DNA of 64,000 bases from Escherichia phage BME3: sequence record PP239276.1; one strand, 5' to 3'. A program made the translations under genes and the position numbers. The first letter of the stretch is position 1. Each line of letters begins with the position of its first letter. The notes under the pieces were generated by a model that saw only the letters and a program-made list of their open reading frames with translations, was not told where the DNA came from and made no database searches. Positions 30,744 through 64,000 of this stretch are shown piece by piece.

Positions 30744-33005
30744 GTGACTCAGTATCTAAGCAAATCTATCCGTTATGTAACAAAAACAAACGGCAAGAAA
30801 GAAGAATTTAATCCAGAAAAACTTCGTAAATGGTCAGAGTTTGCTGCTGGTAAATTAAATTGGTCTGAAATTGAACTCGAAGCTGTTAAACGTTGTTACG
30901 ACGGTGTGCCTACTCGTGATTTACATAAAGCTATGATAGCAGCATGTATTGATAAGAAAGATCAGGCATATAGTGATATGGCAGGTCGGTTACTTCTTGG
31001 TATGATCTATAAACAGGCTCATGGGGGATATCACAATATCCCCTCCCTCCTGGATTTCTACAATATGTCTGTAAGTAAAGGCTATTGGGGAAAAATGGAT
31101 TATACAGAAGAAGAAATTATTGAGATTGGTAAAATTGTCAATCACGATAAAAACCTAACTTATGGTTATTCCGTACTGCGCCAGATGGTTGATAAGTATC
31201 TTGTGAAAGATGCGATCAATGATGTTGTTTTTGAATCACCACAGTTTTTATTCATTGGTGTAGCAATGAAGGTAATGGAAATTCAACCAAAAGATCGCAG
31301 AGTAGAAGACATTAAACGTCTATATACCTACGTAAGTGATCTTAAGATTAATTTACCATCGCCTTATTTAACAACTTTGCGTACTAAGATTAAAGGTAGT
31401 GCTTCTTGTTGTCTGTTTAGAGCAGATGATACAGCAGAATCTTTAGCAATTGCTAACTATCTTGCTCATGAATATACATTGAATAATGCAGGTATTGGTG
31501 TTAACCTACAAACCCGTGCTACAGGACAAGGTGTTAAGAACAACCGTATCGTTCACGGTGGGCTTTTACCATATCTGAAATGGATGGAAACAAGTGTTGG
31601 AGCATCAAAACAAGCAAGTCGTGGTGGAAGTGCAACAGTAACGTTCACAATATTAGAGCCTGACTTTGAAGATCTGGTACGTTTGAAAAACCCAACTACG
31701 GTTAGTGAAAAACGAGTAGATAAACTTGATTACTCTATTGTAGTAAACAATGCTTTCCTGCGACGTGCAGCAAAAGGTAAAGATTGGATGTTAGTCAGTT
31801 ATGACGAAGCACCAGAACTCTATGAGGCGCTTTATAAAAGCGAGGAAGAGTTTGAAGAAGTATATGAAAAAGTTAGTCGCAAACGAATTAAGAAGAAGTT
31901 TGTAAAAGCACGAGATCTTCTGGCAGAAATTATTACACAAAGAGCAGAGACAGGACGTATTTATATGTTCTTTGCGGATAATGTTAATAAGCATACTCCG
32001 TTTAAGGATGTTATTTACCAGTCAAACTTGTGCCAAGAAATTTTCTTACCTACGAAAGCATTTCACAATATGACTGATCTTTTCACAGGTGAGAATACAG
32101 AAGATCAAGAATTGGCATTATGCTTCCTGTCTTCTATTGTAGCTGGTCGTGTTACACCAGAAGAATATGAAGATGTTGCATATTATACCGTTCTAACTAT
32201 TGATAATGTTATTGAAACAATGCAGTATCCGTTTAAACATAACGAAATCACTGCTAAAGCACGTAGGTCTATCGGTGTAGGTATTACAAACCTTGCACAT
32301 TATCTGGCAAGTAATTTTGTTACTTATTCAGATCCTTACGGCAAAAAACTAATTCACGAATTAGCAGAAAGACATTATTACTGGTTAGCAAGAGCTTCTC
32401 TTCGTTTGGCAAAAGAGAAAGGTAATGCAGAATGGATGCATAAAACCAAGTGGCCTGAAGGATGGTTGCCTATTGATACCTACGCTAAAGCTGTAGACGA
32501 TATTGGCAATTTTAAACTTAAAATGGATTGGGAAGGTTTACGACAAGATATCATTGCACAAGGTGGTATCCGAAATAGCGTATTAGCAGCTATTGCTCCA
32601 AATGAGTCCAGTAGTCTTGTAAGTAATACGACTAACTCTGTGTATCCTGTACGAGATACTATAGTTTATAAACAAAGCCAAAAAGGTAATGTTCTGTTTA
32701 TTGTGCCAGATTACGATAAACTAAAAGATATTTACCAATCGGCTTGGGATACGCCAGATAAAGATATGGCTGAAGCATATGGTCTGTTGACTAAATTCTT
32801 AGATCAAGGTGCATCATGTGATAAGTGGATTGACTACTCTAAGATGGAAGGTGGTCGTTTATCCATTAAATCAGAAATGCAATATATCCTTCAGTTTGCA
32901 AAACTTGGTGGTAAATCTTTGTACTATCTAAATAGTAGAACAAAATCGGCAACCTCACTCGCTCAAGAGGATGAAGAATCCGGTTGTGAGGCTTGTAAGA
33001 TGTAA
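30744..33005 (+). CDS. nrdA: ribonucleoside-diphosphate reductase alpha subunit (class Ia)
   Basis: 753 aa; N-terminal ATP-cone (VTKTNGKKEEFNPEKLRKW), large catalytic core, C-terminal redox Cys pair ...ESGCEACKM; GTG start with AGGAGAGG RBS. Confidence 0.9.
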   Translation: MTQYLSKSIRYVTKTNGKKEEFNPEKLRKWSEFAAGKLNWSEIELEAVKRCYDGVPTRDLHKAMIAACIDKKDQAYSDMAGRLLLGMIYKQAHGGYHNIPSLLDFYNMSVSKGYWGKMDYTEEEIIEIGKIVNHDKNLTYGYSVLRQMVDKYLVKDAINDVVFESPQFLFIGVAMKVMEIQPKDRRVEDIKRLYTYVSDLKINLPSPYLTTLRTKIKGSASCCLFRADDTAESLAIANYLAHEYTLNNAGIGVNLQTRATGQGVKNNRIVHGGLLPYLKWMETSVGASKQASRGGSATVTFTILEPDFEDLVRLKNPTTVSEKRVDKLDYSIVVNNAFLRRAAKGKDWMLVSYDEAPELYEALYKSEEEFEEVYEKVSRKRIKKKFVKARDLLAEIITQRAETGRIYMFFADNVNKHTPFKDVIYQSNLCQEIFLPTKAFHNMTDLFTGENTEDQELALCFLSSIVAGRVTPEEYEDVAYYTVLTIDNVIETMQYPFKHNEITAKARRSIGVGITNLAHYLASNFVTYSDPYGKKLIHELAERHYYWLARASLRLAKEKGNAEWMHKTKWPEGWLPIDTYAKAVDDIGNFKLKMDWEGLRQDIIAQGGIRNSVLAAIAPNESSSLVSNTTNSVYPVRDTIVYKQSQKGNVLFIVPDYDKLKDIYQSAWDTPDKDMAEAYGLLTKFLDQGASCDKWIDYSKMEGGRLSIKSEMQYILQFAKLGGKSLYYLNSRTKSATSLAQEDEESGCEACKM

Positions 33006-33381
33006 TGAAACTAGGGGGCTTTGTCCCCCTTTCTTAAGGAGGAATATGCCTACATTAGTTGTATTACCTGGAGCAACACCACAAAGACGCTGGGGAAATT
33101 ATACACTGGTAGATAGTAAAGATTTTACATTCGATTGGTGTTGTCATTATATTGCAGGTTTTCAATTTTCCAGTGTTGAAATATGGGCTTCCAATGATCC
33201 CATAGCTACCTGGTATGCTTTAACCAGGGCAAGGTATGAGGGAGAGGTTACTGTACTACTCACAAAGAGTGTATGGGATGCATTAGAGAAGGCTTACATA
33301 GAGCATGGTATGGAGAGAGAACACATTGATACAATAAAAGCAATGTGCGATATTGTGGAGGATTTAAATGGCAGCAATTAA
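32971..33381 (+). CDS. hypothetical protein between nrdA and nrdB
   Basis: AAGGAGG RBS before internal Met near 33046 (MPTLVVLPGATPQRRW...); ~111 aa, Trp/Cys-rich. Confidence 0.45.
   Translation: MKNPVVRLVRCNETRGLCPPFLRRNMPTLVVLPGATPQRRWGNYTLVDSKDFTFDWCCHYIAGFQFSSVEIWASNDPIATWYALTRARYEGEVTVLLTKSVWDALEKAYIEHGMEREHIDTIKAMCDIVEDLNGSN
33013..33035 (+). promoter_or_regulatory. GC hairpin between nrdA and the next gene (attenuator or terminator)
   Basis: AGGGGGC-TTTG-TCCCCCT hairpin followed by TTCTT. Confidence 0.4.
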
Positions 33382-39704: not shown

Positions 39705-39709
39705 ACAAA

Positions 39710-39728
39710 GGGGCGAAAGCCCCTTTTA
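39710..39728 (+). terminator. intrinsic terminator
   Basis: GGGGCGAAAGCCCC hairpin plus T-run after the lysozyme gene. Confidence 0.6.
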
Positions 39729-39742
39729 TAAGGAGTGCAAAC

Positions 39743-40495
39743 ATGGGAAATAAAACCGCAAAGGCTCGTCGTCAATCAGCAGCCAATGATGACAAACGTG
39801 CCAGTCGTTATGCGGCTAAAGCAGTAGGAAATGATGATTACCGTCTTGATGAATTTACCCCTGTTGGGAATCAAGAAGCTATTGTAAGAAGCATGGTTTG
39901 GAATGATTTAACCATTGTTAATGCCCCAGCAGGAACAGGAAAAACGACAACAGCACTGTGGAAAGCATTGCAAATGCTTAAAGCTGGTGATTTCAGAAAG
40001 TTGATTTTCCTTAAAAACCCGACAGAAGTAGGTGATGATCAAATTGGTTTCTTATCTGGAGATAAGACTGATAAACTGGCAGCACACTACGAATCAACTA
40101 AAAGAATTTTCCAACAGTTTATGACTGCAAATAAATTGGAAAACGATATTGCAAGTGGCAAAATTGAACTTAATATTCCAAACTATGCACTAGGTGCTAC
40201 CTGGGATAACAGTATTATTCTTATTGATGAAGTTCAACTTATGTCACCAAATACAGTAAAACTTCTTCTTGAGCGAGCAGGTCTTAATACACGTATTGTC
40301 ATTATGGGTGATGTTAATCAAACATATGCAATTAAACGAAGAGCTAACGGGTTAGGTGATTTGTTAGATCGTGTTGTTCCTATTAATGAAGAAGGAGAAA
40401 GGGAAGCTATTGTAGATTTTATTGGTTATGTTGAAATGACAACTGCTGATAACCAACGTTCCCGTTTGTCTCAGTTCATCACGGAAGTATACTAA
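39743..40495 (+). CDS. phoH: PhoH-like ATPase
   Basis: 250 aa; Walker A NAPAGTGKTTTA, Walker B ILIDEVQ, PhoH-typical length. Confidence 0.85.
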   Translation: MGNKTAKARRQSAANDDKRASRYAAKAVGNDDYRLDEFTPVGNQEAIVRSMVWNDLTIVNAPAGTGKTTTALWKALQMLKAGDFRKLIFLKNPTEVGDDQIGFLSGDKTDKLAAHYESTKRIFQQFMTANKLENDIASGKIELNIPNYALGATWDNSIILIDEVQLMSPNTVKLLLERAGLNTRIVIMGDVNQTYAIKRRANGLGDLLDRVVPINEEGEREAIVDFIGYVEMTTADNQRSRLSQFITEVY

Positions 40496-40531
40496 TAATT
40501 ACAAGGCAAGGATGCCTGTTATGGAGGTTAA

Positions 40532-41026
40532 ATGACGCTAATTGAGATTGATCGCAATGGTATTGATGAATGCTATCAAGCTGGCTTAGTTAAGCCGAAT
40601 GAGTTTAGACAGATTTATATTGACAAGATTGAAAAAGAAATATCTCTTCGTTTAGAGAACATGACAACTTTGCAAAAAGTTCAGATGTTTTTTAGTTGGT
40701 TAAAAGGCGAGGATTGGCTAACTAAATATTACCAGGAATTATCTGATAGTCAAGAAGGCTTGTTTGAGTGTATAATAAATATAGCTGGGTCTAATTCAGA
40801 ATTACTCCTGATTGATGAAGAAGATTCTAAACTTCTTTTTCTTAGCAGTATCTTTCACAAGAAATCTATGTTAGTAAGAAATTGCAGTGATTTACTAAAT
40901 CATCCACTAACAAGAACTAATAAAATTCTTGTGGATAAAGAAACACTAAGAGCTATTGATTACCTCCGTAAATATGTAAGCGGTGGTAAAGCAGTCCTTA
41001 AAACACTACAGGAGGAAGTACAATGA
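40532..41026 (+). CDS. hypothetical protein
   Basis: 164-aa ORF. Confidence 0.5.
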   Translation: MTLIEIDRNGIDECYQAGLVKPNEFRQIYIDKIEKEISLRLENMTTLQKVQMFFSWLKGEDWLTKYYQELSDSQEGLFECIINIAGSNSELLLIDEEDSKLLFLSSIFHKKSMLVRNCSDLLNHPLTRTNKILVDKETLRAIDYLRKYVSGGKAVLKTLQEEVQ

Positions 41027-41676
41027 CAACAATTATTGCAACACGTAACAAAATTCTGTCTGACGGTAAAGTAACAGTAGGTAGTCGTGTAGACACTTTA
41101 AATTTCAAGAAAGTGCGTAAAATTGGGGATTACCTTGTTGGTGGTGCAGGACGTCTGTCTTCTATCCTGACTTTCTTTTCTTGGTTCGAACAAAACTTAC
41201 AATGCCAAGCAGCACAAGAGACAATCCCAGGTTTGGTGATCCAGTCAGATCCTGACAAAGAAGATGAAGAGTTTGTGGCATTGGTTGTTCACCCAGACGG
41301 TAAAATTTATATGCACGAGGGTAATAATCCCACGCGAGCATATCCTTTAACTGAAGATTATTATGCTGTTGGTAGTGGGGCAGATTTTGCTTTAGCAGCT
41401 TTAGACGCTGGGGCATCCCCAGAAGAAGCGATGGAAGTTGCAAAACTGCGAGATGCTTTTTCAGGCGGTGAAACTTTTATCGAAGAGATCGAAGAACAAC
41501 TGGAGTTAACAGCGGAAGATATTCTGAACTTTAGCAAGGAGCAACTAATTAGTATGCTGTTGACTGGTGATCCTGATAGTGATGAAGCTGAAAGTATTTT
41601 AGCAGAAATGAAAGAATCACAAGAAAAAGTATTGACAGTCTCTGAAAAACTTGATAAAGTGTCCTCTGATAATTAA
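41023..41676 (+). CDS. HslV / 20S-proteasome-beta-like Ntn-hydrolase (putative threonine peptidase)
   Basis: 217 aa; Thr immediately after Met (MTTIIATRN), KVRKIGDYLVGGAG, AVGSGADFALAALDAG resemble HslV; acidic C-terminal extension. Confidence 0.6.
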   Translation: MTTIIATRNKILSDGKVTVGSRVDTLNFKKVRKIGDYLVGGAGRLSSILTFFSWFEQNLQCQAAQETIPGLVIQSDPDKEDEEFVALVVHPDGKIYMHEGNNPTRAYPLTEDYYAVGSGADFALAALDAGASPEEAMEVAKLRDAFSGGETFIEEIEEQLELTAEDILNFSKEQLISMLLTGDPDSDEAESILAEMKESQEKVLTVSEKLDKVSSDN

Positions 41677-41686
41677 TCTAGTATAA

Positions 41687-41704
41687 ACCCCCAGCAAGGG
41701 GGTT
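41687..41704 (+). terminator. intrinsic terminator
   Basis: CCCCCAGCAAGGGGG hairpin followed by TTATT. Confidence 0.55.
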
Positions 41705-49631: not shown

Positions 49632-50165
49632 ATGGGTTTTGATGATATGTTATTATATGAGGAGGCTTGTGTGAAAGAAGCTATGGCTTTACCAGTTTTA
49701 TCTATTGATATTACAACAGTAGACACTTTTTCAGATTGTGAAACGTGTGGATCGTATTCGTCTATTGTACATGAAGTCAGTGGTGATTTAGGCACTTACG
49801 AAGATGGAGATTATGCAAGTTGTTTAGGTGATAATCTAGATGGTGAAGTGGTGAATGTTGCAAACTGGATTGCTTCTAAGTTAAAAGAAAGAAATCGTCC
49901 GTTCCCTAATCTTCTTACACCAGAAGCTATGCTTAAAGCTGAACAAGAGATGTATGATTATGGTTATAAAGTAGATTATGACTATAATGATCCTAAATAT
50001 AAAAAATTGAGTGACAAGTATTGGGAACTAGCTAACGCTTATGATAAATACTACTCTACAGAAAACATTGTTAAATTGTTTTTAGATTTTGGAGTAGAAA
50101 TTAATTGGGATTTCGAAGAGGAAGAGCGTTACGACGCATCTTCTTGGGAGGACGAGGGTGAATGA
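49632..50165 (+). CDS. hypothetical acidic protein
   Basis: 177-aa ORF with GGAGG RBS. Confidence 0.5.
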   Translation: MGFDDMLLYEEACVKEAMALPVLSIDITTVDTFSDCETCGSYSSIVHEVSGDLGTYEDGDYASCLGDNLDGEVVNVANWIASKLKERNRPFPNLLTPEAMLKAEQEMYDYGYKVDYDYNDPKYKKLSDKYWELANAYDKYYSTENIVKLFLDFGVEINWDFEEEERYDASSWEDEGE

Positions 50166-50902
50166 TAGAACGAAAACCCTTACCAGATAGAGATTACTTG
50201 TTATCAAGGTTTAGTGTGGAGAATGGTCGTCTTGTTTGGAAACCTAAACCTTCTACAACAAAAGAGAACAAAAGGTGGAATAGCAGATACGCAGGGAAGA
50301 TTGCAGGGACTATTGATAAAGTTGGTTACTCTCATGTCAAAATAGATGGTATTGTATACTTGGAGCACAGAATTTGTTTTAAAATGTATCATAATTACTG
50401 TCCAGATGTTATAGACCATGACGACGGCAATAAACTTAATAATGCGGAAAGTAATTTGTTGGATAGTAACTATTTATTAAATAATAACAATAGACACGTG
50501 GATGGGTTAGAAGGTATTTATGAAAAGGATGGTGTTTTTCTTTGGGTTATAAACTACAACCAAGAAACTTTCTCTGTTTCAGGTTTCAAAACTAAAGAGG
50601 AAGCTATTGTAGCTAGAGCTTTAGCAAAACAAGAAATTTTGAAAGGATCTTATATCAAAAAAGAAAAGAAGCGTATAGATAACACTTCAGGATTAAGCTG
50701 TGTGTTTGTGGCGACAAGAGAGAGAACATTCTTTTTCAAGTTTGTGTTTGACAAGACCACGTATTGCAAATATGGTTTCAACGATCCAGAGAGATGTGCT
50801 ATAGCTCTGGAGAAGCTAAGATTAAAGGTGATGAAAGAAAAATATAAACCTGCAAATAAAAGCATTTGCGAAAAATATAAGGAGGAGATTTATGCCGCGT
50901 AG
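50162..50902 (+). CDS. HNH homing endonuclease (HNH plus AP2-like DNA-binding region)
   Basis: 246 aa; HVKIDGIVYLEHRICF...IDHDDGNKLNNAESNL HNH core; C-terminal basic region. Confidence 0.6.
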   Translation: MIERKPLPDRDYLLSRFSVENGRLVWKPKPSTTKENKRWNSRYAGKIAGTIDKVGYSHVKIDGIVYLEHRICFKMYHNYCPDVIDHDDGNKLNNAESNLLDSNYLLNNNNRHVDGLEGIYEKDGVFLWVINYNQETFSVSGFKTKEEAIVARALAKQEILKGSYIKKEKKRIDNTSGLSCVFVATRERTFFFKFVFDKTTYCKYGFNDPERCAIALEKLRLKVMKEKYKPANKSICEKYKEEIYAA

Positions 50903-62547: not shown

Positions 62548-62721
62548 CTATTACAAGAACAGTAACATAGGAACATCATTAATGAAGGAATTAGTATAGG
62601 TATTCCCTATCAATTATTCTATATATACCTATTATTTTTAACACACCCATTTGTACATAATATAGACAAATAAATATCTATGCCACAAAAATTTTCCGGT
62701 ATACCCGATTTATTTCGACAC

Positions 62722-63139
62722 ACCCCCTTTTCATAAGCGTAAAGTCAATAATATCAATAACTTGCCGCAAAATACTGCTCGCTTGCGAGAGGTGCTTAAC
62801 GCGATTTTCAGCGCCCCCCGATTTCTGCCGACCGTCCCCCTCAAATATCAATGAGAATAATTATCATTTGCATTATCATTCAATGACTTATAAGACTTTT
62901 GATTATTTTCTGAGCGAAAAAGGTGCTACTCACAACAAAACAGATAAATTCTAAGTAAATCAATGACTTGGCAAGTCTAAACATCTATATACACCTTGCC
63001 AAATGAAATGATCCTGCGTGAAATAGTGCTACCCGTGGAAGATAGCTGATAATGATTATCATTTGCATATTTTCTATACTATAAAACGCCCTAAAAATCA
63101 AGATAATTCTACTTTATTGCGCTTTTAAGAAAGTAGGCT
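62722..63139. repeat. direct repeat copy 1 (~417 bp)
   Basis: Near-identical to 63584..64000 (about 3 mismatches, all near the 5' end); contains inverted repeat TTGGCAAG-N21-CTTGCCAA and hairpin CTCGC-TTG-CGAG. Confidence 0.8.
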
Positions 63140-63140
63140 C

Positions 63141-63212
63141 AACAAATAGGGAGATACATTGCAACAAATAGGGGTAATTTTATCCAACAAATAACAACAA
63201 ATAGTAAGTTAT
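63141..63212. repeat. iteron-like short direct repeats (CAACAAATAG x4)
   Basis: caacaaataggg...caacaaatagggg...ccaacaaataa...caacaaatagtaag within ~70 nt between the two large repeat copies. Confidence 0.6.
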
Positions 63213-63439
63213 ATGGGGCAATAGTATGAAAAATCATCTATTCAGATATAAATAATTTTGCGCAATAGTAGTAATATTTTCTTGACAAGAAAGATTTCTT
63301 TGTGTTCACATAGCGCCCCCTGGAAGGTGGCGCATTATGATCATCGGTGTCATTATTCACGATGTTTACTATTGCATAGCTCATTATTTAGCTTATATTA
63401 TAGCCAATGTTCTAAACATTAGCTAATAATAACGCACCG

Positions 63440-63540
63440 CAACAATGTAAGGGAATACAATATACCATGTATATTGTTGCGCTTGCAATTGTTGCAAGCT
63501 ACATAAGCACAAATAATAACTATCGGTGATAGTTATTATG
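63440..63540. promoter_or_regulatory. cluster of perfect palindromes (candidate operator/origin elements)
   Basis: GCTTGCAA-TTG-TTGCAAGC and AATAACTATC-GGT-GATAGTTATT lie within ~60 nt; coordinates approximate. Confidence 0.45.
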
Positions 63541-63583
63541 TGGGGTGTGTAGTTGCGTTATTATTAGCCGCCTATGTGTCCGG

Positions 63584-64000
63584 CACCCTTTTCATAATCG
63601 TAAAGTCAATAATATCAAAAACTTGACGCAAAATACTGCTCGCTTGCGAGAGGTGCTTAACGCGATTTTCAGCGCCCCCCGATTTCTGCCGACCGTCCCC
63701 CTCAAATATCAATGAGAATAATTATCATTTGCATTATCATTCAATGACTTATAAGACTTTTGATTATTTTCTGAGCGAAAAAGGTGCTACTCACAACAAA
63801 ACAGATAAATTCTAAGTAAATCAATGACTTGGCAAGTCTAAACATCTATATACACCTTGCCAAATGAAATGATCCTGCGTGAAATAGTGCTACCCGTGGA
63901 AGATAGCTGATAATGATTATCATTTGCATATTTTCTATACTATAAAACGCCCTAAAAATCAAGATAATTCTACTTTATTGCGCTTTTAAGAAAGTAGGCT
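63584..64000. repeat. direct repeat copy 2 (truncated by window end)
   Basis: Matches 62722..63139 base-for-base over its visible length apart from ~3 substitutions; may extend beyond the window. Confidence 0.8.

Follow-up and report, generated by a model that had tools for sequence, protein, structure and literature searches.

The locus and its protease gene

The stretch of DNA considered here, hereafter the window, comprises 64,000 nucleotides from Escherichia phage BME3 (sequence record PP239276.1) and encodes, at positions 41023-41676, a 217-residue protein resembling the threonine protease HslV. The source belongs to the phi92-like Escherichia phages (Justusliebigvirus, Stephanstirmvirinae). 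Over its full length, the window is collinear with phi92 positions 63690 to 1 at 95-99% identity, and the 5-kb stretch around the protease gene is 99% identical to phi92 and to many of its relatives. The protein is the ortholog of phi92 gp058 (Phi92_gp058, YP_009012389.1; 99% identical), and it is called gp058 in what follows. The gene and the elements within it on which the argument depends are as follows.

41010..41015, plus strand: AGGAGG ribosome-binding site, 7 nucleotides before the ATG (read from the sequence; phi92 annotates a ribosome-binding site at the equivalent position)
41023..41676, plus strand: protease coding sequence, 217 amino acids, ATG start (open reading frame list, 99% DNA identity to phi92, profiles, AlphaFold2 model)
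41026..41028, plus strand: codon of Thr2, the predicted catalytic nucleophile after removal of Met1 (conservation, alignment with Thr1 of E. coli HslV)
41062..41151, plus strand: segment of the catalytic core with Asp14, Lys30 and the G40-G41-A42-G43 oxyanion loop (invariance, HslV alignment)
41140..41151, plus strand: GGAG, residues 40-43 (sequence)
41224..41271, plus strand: residues 68-83 (IPGLVIQSDPDKEDEE), an acidic coil containing proline and glycine (AlphaFold2 model, conservation, HslV alignment)
41371..41400, plus strand: GSGADFALAA, residues 117-126, leading into helix H3 (invariance, HslV alignment)
41497..41673, plus strand: C-terminal extension, approximately residues 159-217 (AlphaFold2 helices, family conservation)

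Family identity, active site and predicted fold

An earlier note on this DNA had recognized in the reading frame 41023..41676, from its GGAG and GSGADFALAA motifs and from a threonine directly after the initiator methionine, an N-terminal nucleophile (Ntn) hydrolase of the HslV/Anbu/BPH type and hence a threonine protease like HslV or a proteasome beta subunit. The protein indeed begins with MTT, and profiles, the alignment of the active site and the predicted fold all bear out the assignment. That the motifs are not a chance resemblance follows from three kinds of match: Pfam Proteasome (PF00227) is passed marginally (expectation value, E, of 2e-5; 24.8 bits vs a gathering cut-off of 22.4), PHROG 1040, named 'peptidase HslV family', is matched at E=1.9e-61, and sequences of HslV crystal structures are matched down to E=6.5e-8 with gp058 as a single-sequence query (Thermotoga maritima, 1m4y). 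When the gp058 family profile is compared with the sequences in the PDB, HslV is the best match (E=6e-12), and many members of the family carry a precomputed PF00227 match. The identification itself is already public, since RefSeq names phi92 gp058 'peptidase HslV family' with the note 'putative 20S proteasome', and other records call its orthologs proteasome component, nucleophile aminohydrolase or ATP-dependent protease subunit. The gene, the family name and the puzzle of a phage 'HslV without HslU' are already known. New here are the placement of gp058 in a phage branch that lacks helix H2, the anatomy of its long form, its coupling to the neighboring gene gp059, an apparent natural deletion, the case against hijacking of HslU, and the exclusion of an ATPase partner and of a prohead-protease role.

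The active site of gp058 can be superimposed on that of E. coli HslV position by position: Thr2 corresponds to Thr1, Asp14 to Asp17, Lys30 to Lys33, the GGAG loop to the region of Gly45-49, and G117-S118-G119 to G123-S124-G125. The active-site features that define the superfamily (MEROPS T1), namely the triad residues Asp17 and Lys33, the oxyanion loop with Gly47 and the Ser129/GSG element, all have counterparts in gp058. In an alignment of 19 homologs that extends down to 30% identity, M1, T2, T3, D14, K30, G41, G43 and G117-S118-G119 are invariant. Among 78 family representatives sharing less than 80% identity, T2 and T3 are conserved in at least 95% and M1 in at least 80%; the five catalytic positions (Thr2, Asp14, Lys30, the GGAG loop and the serine of GSG) are likewise conserved in at least 95%. 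Host methionine aminopeptidase would be expected to remove Met1 and thereby expose Thr2, as E. coli HslV likewise starts with MTT.

This pattern bears on the notion that gp058 has no catalytic activity and serves as a decoy, either by poisoning the rings of host HslV or by binding up a host factor. Mimicry of host complexes by viruses is generally known to be common, and gp058 is 22-28% identical to HslV; however, every catalytic residue is invariant in a family that has otherwise diverged to approx. 30% identity, which indicates selection for catalysis, and the elements through which the subunits of a ring would touch are unlike those of HslV. A decoy is therefore extremely improbable.

The AlphaFold2 monomer model of gp058, built from the 19-homolog alignment, has a mean predicted local distance difference test score (pLDDT) of 82.3 and shows the alpha-beta-beta-alpha sandwich of Ntn hydrolases. 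Foldseek matches this model with a probability of 1.0 and E of about 1e-9 to HslV (6kui, 1m4y, 1g3i, 9a4t), BPH (5ovs) and archaeal and eukaryotic 20S beta subunits (6z46). In the PDB, 950 matches are obtained at E<=1e-3, and the best 50 are all HslV, BPH or 20S subunits with a probability of 1.0. A predicted fold outside the Ntn hydrolases, which the earlier note had named as the outcome that would overturn its assignment, is thus not what structure prediction returns.

Departure from canonical HslV

Membership in the superfamily does not make gp058 a canonical HslV, or ClpQ, the peptidase of the ATP-dependent bacterial protease HslUV, and judged by its sequence it is not one. The two NCBIfam equivalog models for HslV, NF003964 and TIGR03692, give gp058 33.9 and 31.3 bits vs cut-offs of 137 and 157.75. 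When 1.84 billion cluster representatives are searched exhaustively with a profile, 8246 relatives are found at E<=1e-3 and only 58 at E<=1e-30; these 58 share the long form of gp058 (180-350 amino acids). Ranked below them are many proteins of approx. 135-155 amino acids that begin with 'MTTI...', together with a group of approx. 178 amino acids, and none of the best 150 library representatives is like E. coli HslV (top score, 37 bits). Single-linkage clustering by BLAST joins gp058 to the proteins of approx. 140 amino acids at 1e-20 and to the 178-residue group at 1e-12, and E. coli HslV is joined only at 1e-8. Similarly, a hidden Markov model (HMM) of 54 short forms gives the gp058 core 139 bits and E. 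coli HslV 48 bits; the short forms used for clustering and for this model had been picked with the gp058 family profile. Among fold matches in BFVD, the first to follow the long-form relatives are Caulobacter phage proteins of 131-146 amino acids named 'Ntn hydrolase' or 'proteasome subunit beta', with template modeling (TM) scores of up to 0.87.

What gp058 and HslV share is the catalytic apparatus (Thr1, Asp17, Lys33, the Gly45-49 loop and Ser124 in HslV numbering), the MTT start and the Ntn sandwich. Compared with HslV, gp058 has four residues fewer in the S1-S2 hairpin, two fewer before the GxAG loop and nine fewer in the H3-H4 loop. The most conspicuous difference concerns the helix pair H1/H2 of HslV: the gp058 model contains one long helix (H1, residues 45-67) and then no helix until the strand at residues 84-89. 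The intervening residues 68-83 (IPGLVIQSDPDKEDEE) form a coil that takes the place of helix H2. The family consensus of this coil is 'P.L.I...PDK.DEEF'; Pro69, Gly70 and Pro77 are conserved and D81 is invariant. The coil aligns with 'TDRMLRKL' of HslV, and the basic pore motif R86/R89/K90 of HslV is replaced by K-E-D-E-E in gp058. The same region of HslV includes L88, the residue altered in the deregulated L88A mutant (PDB 4g4e). The segment from GxxG to GSG comprises 73 residues in gp058, 74 in HslV (counted by hand from the sequence) and a median of 58 in the short forms.

The second departure lies at the C-terminus. The last core strand of gp058 spans residues 151-155, and the core comprises approx. 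158 residues; HslV lacks the extension of 55-60 residues that follows. In the model, this extension contains helices at residues 164-169, 172-181 and 188-214. An acidic linker comes first, then a conserved helix (approx. residues 164-185; motif L-T-x-E-D...(S/T)-K-E-Q-L-I), and finally a variable acidic tail. The helix motif is kept by every long-form representative, even by members of 183 amino acids that end just past it, and the net charge of the tail ranges from 0 to -30 in all listed representatives except one (+1). Some homologs of gp058 carry extra C-terminal domains. The long-form homologs P0099, P0102, P0104, P0096 and P0118 share a terminal motif, '..(V/I)KY(A/S)HNIG..KL..RI..', which is HeH/SAP-like and is missing from phi92-type proteins; its sole profile support is a sub-threshold match to Ish1 (PF10281, E=0.0088).

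Placement among proteasome homologs

In 2021, Fuchs, Alva and Lupas published a catalogue of 22 new proteasome homologs (PMC8665760). Two of these groups, PPH and RPC, 'lack the second helix (H2)'; PPH proteins have approx. 140 residues, and RPC is reported only from Proteobacteria, with none from phages (PMC8665760). Like PPH, gp058 belongs to group I, of which HslV and BPH are the nearest characterized members; it starts with MTT, has no propeptide, is missing H2 in the model and is borne by tailed phages. Unlike PPH, it has 217 residues instead of approx. 140, it holds a 16-residue acidic coil rather than a deletion at the place of H2, and it adds a further helix and an acidic tail. It is similar to RPC in combining a PPH-like core with a C-terminal extension, whereas RPC is reported from Proteobacteria alone. 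These features fit a position of gp058 in a compact, phage-specific PPH/RPC branch, of which WP_042125023.1 and WP_140207863 are published representatives; the comparison was made with the published description and, as a proxy for PPH, with the HMM of 54 short forms.

BPH, the Betaproteobacteria proteasome homologue, provides a second point of reference. The pore loop of HslV, whose gate is controlled by HslU, is very short, and that of BPH, which works without an unfoldase, is long and acidic (PMC8665760). Like gp058, BPH (5ovs; Foldseek E=5e-9) is an orphan protease without an unfoldase and bears an acidic loop at the position of the pore (PMC8665760), and the acidic loop of gp058 would thus resemble the BPH pore loop. 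However, the similarity of BPH to the family profile is weak (25 bits, E=1.2e-4), its TM scores are 0.45-0.53, it keeps H2, and it is a cellular protein. HslV-like genes in the absence of an HslU gene have also been noted in other large phages, such as the Salmonella jumbo phage pSal-SNUABM-04, which belongs to another phage lineage (PMC7823757).

The same catalogue raises the question of whether gp058 forms a ring at all, given that connectase, a monomeric ligase, belongs to the proteasome-like family and that several of the new homologs may not form rings (PMC8665760). Accordingly, gp058 might be a sequence-specific Ntn enzyme, possibly monomeric: a connectase-like transpeptidase or ligase, a single-site processor or an amidohydrolase acting on a non-protein substrate. 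The loss of H2 and the C-terminal extension change surfaces that would be engaged in ring contacts, and the extra C-terminal domains of some homologs suggest targeting. The signature of connectase is a two-helix insertion between S3 and S4 together with loss of H1 and H2 (PMC8665760). This signature is missing from gp058, whose model has H1 and no S3/S4 insertion; moreover, the nearest matches in fold and sequence are ring-forming proteases, and no particular substrate is indicated. A specific enzyme of this kind is consequently judged a fairly improbable alternative to a self-compartmentalizing peptidase.

Partner ATPases and the proposed hijacking of host HslU

The earlier note had stated that no HslU-like AAA+ gene lies next to the protease gene or elsewhere in the window, and this holds on the basis of the phi92 annotation and of collinearity; a canonical HslV gene normally shares its operon with the cognate hslU. 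No HslU, ClpX or other AAA+ unfoldase is present in the window as judged via the phi92 annotation, and none of the HslU/ClpX type appears in the whole phi92 annotation; the window-specific inserts relative to phi92 are too short to encode an unfoldase, and the only sizeable one lies at 50162..50902. Two qualifications apply: a gene for a PhoH-family P-loop ATPase lies nearby, and phi92 has two AAA genes elsewhere. No unfoldase gene adjoins the protease gene in the loci of eight relatives (Vibrio, Aeromonas, Shewanella and Klebsiella phages, three metagenomic contigs and phage VEcB) or in those of four unrelated lineages (a Rhizobium phage, a roseophage, a Pseudomonas phage and a Caulobacter phage).

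The two AAA paralogs of phi92, gp190 and gp221, lie outside the window (L003:17149-18309, minus strand, and L003:33606-34733, plus strand; PHROG 2376). Either of them could in principle form with gp058 a split, phage-specific ATP-dependent protease: they match Pfam AAA (PF00004) with 27 and 39 bits, some records give them the label 'FtsH-like protease' or 'ATPase or Zn metalloprotease', and they are present throughout Stephanstirmvirinae. Both possess the Walker A and B motifs; an aromatic pore loop between these is missing, as is a protease domain, and their C-termini (..ASVF and ..ARSY) are neither HbYX- nor HslU-like. Their nearest PHROGs are, at weak similarity, clamp loaders and DnaC-type helicase loaders, and similarity to PDB entries is marginal or absent. 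Moreover, 381 phage records contain the family, among them those of Bacillus, Enterococcus and Staphylococcus phages without such a protease, and the two genes are 95-110 kb away from the protease gene, which they never adjoin in the loci examined. A partnership of this kind is very unlikely, and gp190 and gp221 were rejected as partners for want of a pore loop or docking motif, for their loader-like similarity and for their frequency in protease-free phages.

The remaining source of an unfoldase would be the host. The earlier note proposed that the phage protein may hijack host HslU; in structural terms, gp058 would assemble into rings of the HslV type (HslV is a dodecamer of two hexameric rings), and these would bind E. 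coli HslU and turn ATP-dependent degradation toward host or phage substrates. Several points are in favor of this proposal: HslV is the closest solved relative by both sequence and fold, no phage unfoldase is on hand, and the known hosts of long-form phages (Escherichia, Klebsiella, Aeromonas, Vibrio and Shewanella, all Gammaproteobacteria) all have HslU, so that host range offers no argument against hijacking. In HslV, HslU's C-terminal tail is received in a pocket between subunits that is lined by Phe54 and Phe57 on H1, Ala79 and Lys80 on H2, and Gln114 (PMC6429459), and beta-hairpin motifs of HslV form a groove for the HslU tail (PMC7468587). The H1 positions of this pocket stay hydrophobic in gp058 (Phe54 is replaced by leucine and Phe57 is retained). 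However, the model has the acidic coil where HslV has H2 with Ala79 and Lys80, and Gln114 is not conserved; as far as a predicted monomer can indicate, the pocket that receives HslU is thus missing from gp058. The first (S1-S2) hairpin of gp058, which may or may not be one of those that form the groove (PMC7468587), is shortened. In addition, acidic residues take the place of the basic pore motif, the H3-H4 loop likewise carries a deletion relative to HslV, scores fall far below the HslV equivalog cut-offs, and the nearest relatives, with which gp058 clusters, are proteins of approx. 140 amino acids whose segment in the H2 region is about 15 residues shorter again. The proposal that gp058 takes over host HslU is therefore not supported, and we consider it unlikely. 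That gp058 acts alone, which the earlier note had offered as the other option, is plausible; its suggestion that the target is to be found among host defense or regulatory proteins is pure speculation, and a search of the PADLOC defense library yields no match.

gp059 and other neighbors

Two genes precede the protease gene on the same strand.

40532..41026, plus strand: gp059 homolog, 164 amino acids (open reading frame list, ATGA overlap with the protease gene, PHROG 14834)
39743..40495, plus strand: PhoH-family P-loop ATPase, two genes upstream of the protease gene (PF02562, E=1.4e-35)

The nearer of the two, gp059, is a conserved and coupled neighbor that the earlier note overlooked. The ATG of the protease gene overlaps the TGA of gp059 as ATGA, which makes gp059 a translationally coupled upstream gene. 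It belongs to PHROG 14834, whose function category is unknown. Homologs of gp059 with 28-39% identity are located upstream of the protease gene in phage FBKp34 and in three divergent metagenomic contigs; in three of these four loci the two genes are directly adjacent, and in the fourth (L010) a single open reading frame of 92 amino acids lies between them. The upstream reading frames of the Vibrio and Aeromonas phages were also considered as gp059 homologs and were rejected, as no homology was found. The AlphaFold2 model of gp059 is all-helical (pLDDT, 93; predicted TM score, 0.84). Searches of Pfam, PADLOC and PDB sequence profiles with gp059 return nothing, and its best Foldseek match in the PDB has E=0.22 and a TM score of 0.15. 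Hence, gp059 has an orphan fold conserved beside the protease and is the best candidate for a functional partner.

The PhoH-family protein is not an AAA+ unfoldase. The order lysozyme, PhoH, small reading frame, protease is found in all enterobacterial-type relatives and is looser in Vibrio and Shewanella phages; the PhoH gene lies upstream of the protease gene in phages of Vibrio, Shewanella and Klebsiella as well as in relatives from metagenomes. It does not adjoin the protease gene in the Rhizobium phage, the roseophage or the Pseudomonas and Caulobacter phages. As the adjacency is limited to related phages and is absent from these four unrelated lineages, it is treated as synteny, and PhoH was rejected as a conserved partner.

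A paralog of the protease occupies the upstream position in another relative. In Aeromonas phage 4L372D, gene 228 (L005:3432-3983), directly upstream of the long-form protease gene, encodes a second member of the HslV family (PHROG 1040, E=9.6e-26); this paralog has 183 amino acids, starts with MTCIIAL and has GCG instead of GSG. Vibrio phage 501E54-1 has two matching places as well. The second paralogs of the Aeromonas and Vibrio relatives may point to a heteromeric assembly.

It is conceivable, though unlikely, that gp059 and gp058 constitute a two-component, ATP-independent phage protease of a kind not described before, in which gp059 would serve as a gate, activator or substrate adaptor for the H2-less ring and which would remove a specific host protein, such as one involved in defense or the stress response, early in infection. 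If this were true, the second paralog found at the gp059 position in the Aeromonas and Vibrio relatives would imply heteromeric rings.

Distribution and possible dispensability

The long form is found in 166 phage records, and metagenomic long-form homologs are carried on phage-like contigs of 60-155 kb. When 185,579 bacterial and archaeal species, each represented by a single genome, were scanned by pattern, an approach of low sensitivity, only one contig of 425 bp was returned. So far as this evidence goes, phage genomes carry the long form and cellular genomes essentially do not. Four GenBank records are labeled as Campylobacter phages (MG065645, MG065639, MG065689 and MG065650; A145, A150, A110a and B15), and their gp058/gp059 regions match those of phi92-like or phAPEC8-like E. 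coli phages at 99-100% identity; the Campylobacter jejuni host labels of these four records look doubtful.

An apparent natural deletion is found in the VEcB record MT932211.1 (L011:2165-2968), in which residues 1-112 of PhoH are fused in frame to residues 63-217 of gp058. The fusion removes the C-terminus of PhoH, the whole of gp059, and the Thr, Asp, Lys and GGAG elements of the protease. If the deletion is real, it suggests that the PhoH-gp059-gp058 block is dispensable for propagation in the laboratory.

Genomic context and a rejected virion-assembly role

The protease gene is preceded on the same strand by genes for ribonucleotide reductase, glutaredoxin, lysozyme and PhoH and is followed by genes for a methyltransferase, an invertase and a phosphatase. 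The long cluster is non-structural, composed of nucleotide-metabolism and accessory genes, and it would be expressed early or in the middle of infection.

This setting is relevant to the view that gp058 is a prohead maturation protease or another protease of virion assembly. Large myophages need a prohead protease, and gp058 is a predicted protease; however, a conventional prohead protease, gp121, is already encoded between the portal and scaffold genes.

3020..3511, minus strand: equivalent of phi92 gp121 (L002:10192-10671 in phi92; Peptidase_S78_2/XkdF, 44.1 bits vs a cut-off of 24; PHROG 3017, E=1e-12)

PHROG 3017 is the head maturation protease family, and RefSeq labels gp121 'DNA methyltransferase'; in view of the Peptidase_S78_2/XkdF and PHROG 3017 matches, gp121 is most likely the prohead protease and its RefSeq product name wrong. 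The gp058 gene is approx. 38 kb away, among nucleotide-metabolism genes and in another transcription block. Furthermore, the VEcB record lacks the catalytic half of gp058 and yet derives from an isolated phage, and a recent paper on the phi92 virion structure mentions neither gp58 nor any protease. Prohead maturation proteases belong to the S78, S80 or U9/U35 families and are encoded in the head-morphogenesis module. Since the S78_2 protease gp121 holds the slot between portal and scaffold in the head module and gp058 lies outside that module, a role of gp058 in capsid maturation is excluded in practice; it was rejected as a very remote prospect.

Downstream of the protease gene, one further element is found in the 41-nucleotide spacer.

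41688..41701, no strand assigned: GC-rich hairpin CCCCC-AGCAA-GGGGG, 3' of the protease gene (sequence, RNA fold)

Its RNA fold has an energy of -15.2 kcal/mol (z = -1.5), which is weak evidence for a possible 3' end or stability element. GC-rich hairpins are also present in the spacers after the lysozyme and PhoH genes (39707..39726 and 40504..40517). In scans around the protease gene, neither promoters and terminators nor the number of GC-rich hairpins exceed the expectation from shuffled sequence.

Two further observations concern the relation of the window to phi92. Positions 62577..64000 match the two termini of the phi92 record, where its 343-bp direct terminal repeat is located; the window thus spans a genome terminus or junction. 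In addition, the plus-strand reading frame 50162..50902 (246 amino acids) has no counterpart in phi92 and, judged by eye from its sequence, looks like an HNH-type endonuclease; conversely, the region of the phi92 HNH endonuclease gp074 is unmatched in the window (33005..33350). Presence and absence of this kind would be expected of mobile homing endonucleases.

Proposed function and significance

The evidence is best accommodated if gp058 is a predicted catalytically competent N-terminal-threonine peptidase, a long-form member of the PPH/RPC-type, H2-less phage branch, with an accessory function that is independent of HslU, and this is probably the case. The protein would work without HslU because an acidic coil stands in place of helix H2, which contributes to the tail pocket, and because the charge of the pore motif is inverted, a feature also of BPH, which needs no unfoldase; a gp058 that is independent of HslU would therefore be an ATP-independent peptidase. 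Two modes of action can be envisaged. In the first, gp058 would degrade peptides and unfolded chains inside a self-assembled ring. In the second, it would cleave a specific host or phage protein recognized via the C-terminal helix and acidic tail, via gp059, or via both. In either case, gp058 would have an accessory role and would not be needed for plaques to form under laboratory conditions.

Several considerations weigh against this reading. The absence of H2 rests on an AlphaFold2 monomer computed from 19 sequences, with a pLDDT of about 75 in the loop. A different local structure of the 68-83 loop in an assembled ring is possible in terms of the model, since the segment from GxxG to GSG is nearly as long as in HslV (73 vs 74 residues). 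The comparison with the short forms is biased, because these were selected by the gp058 family profile, and the hydrophobic H1 positions and the host range noted above are compatible with docking of HslU. The adjacency of PhoH and gp059 to the protease gene is limited to related phages and may only reflect shared ancestry. The VEcB deletion is known from a single record and could be an assembly artefact; the other VEcB record, OZ035773, is intact. In the literature, we found no functional studies, transcriptomes or virion proteomes covering gp058 or PPH and no biochemical or genetic characterization of any phage-encoded proteasome homolog.

Genes of this type are conserved across Stephanstirmvirinae, which include therapeutically relevant phages of E. 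coli and Klebsiella, and in many other large phages. If gp058 functions free of an unfoldase, it would stand as a minimal proteasome-family enzyme that suffices by itself and might be useful as a tool. If it is true that gp058 targets a host protein, it would represent a new route by which phages take over or disarm the cell.

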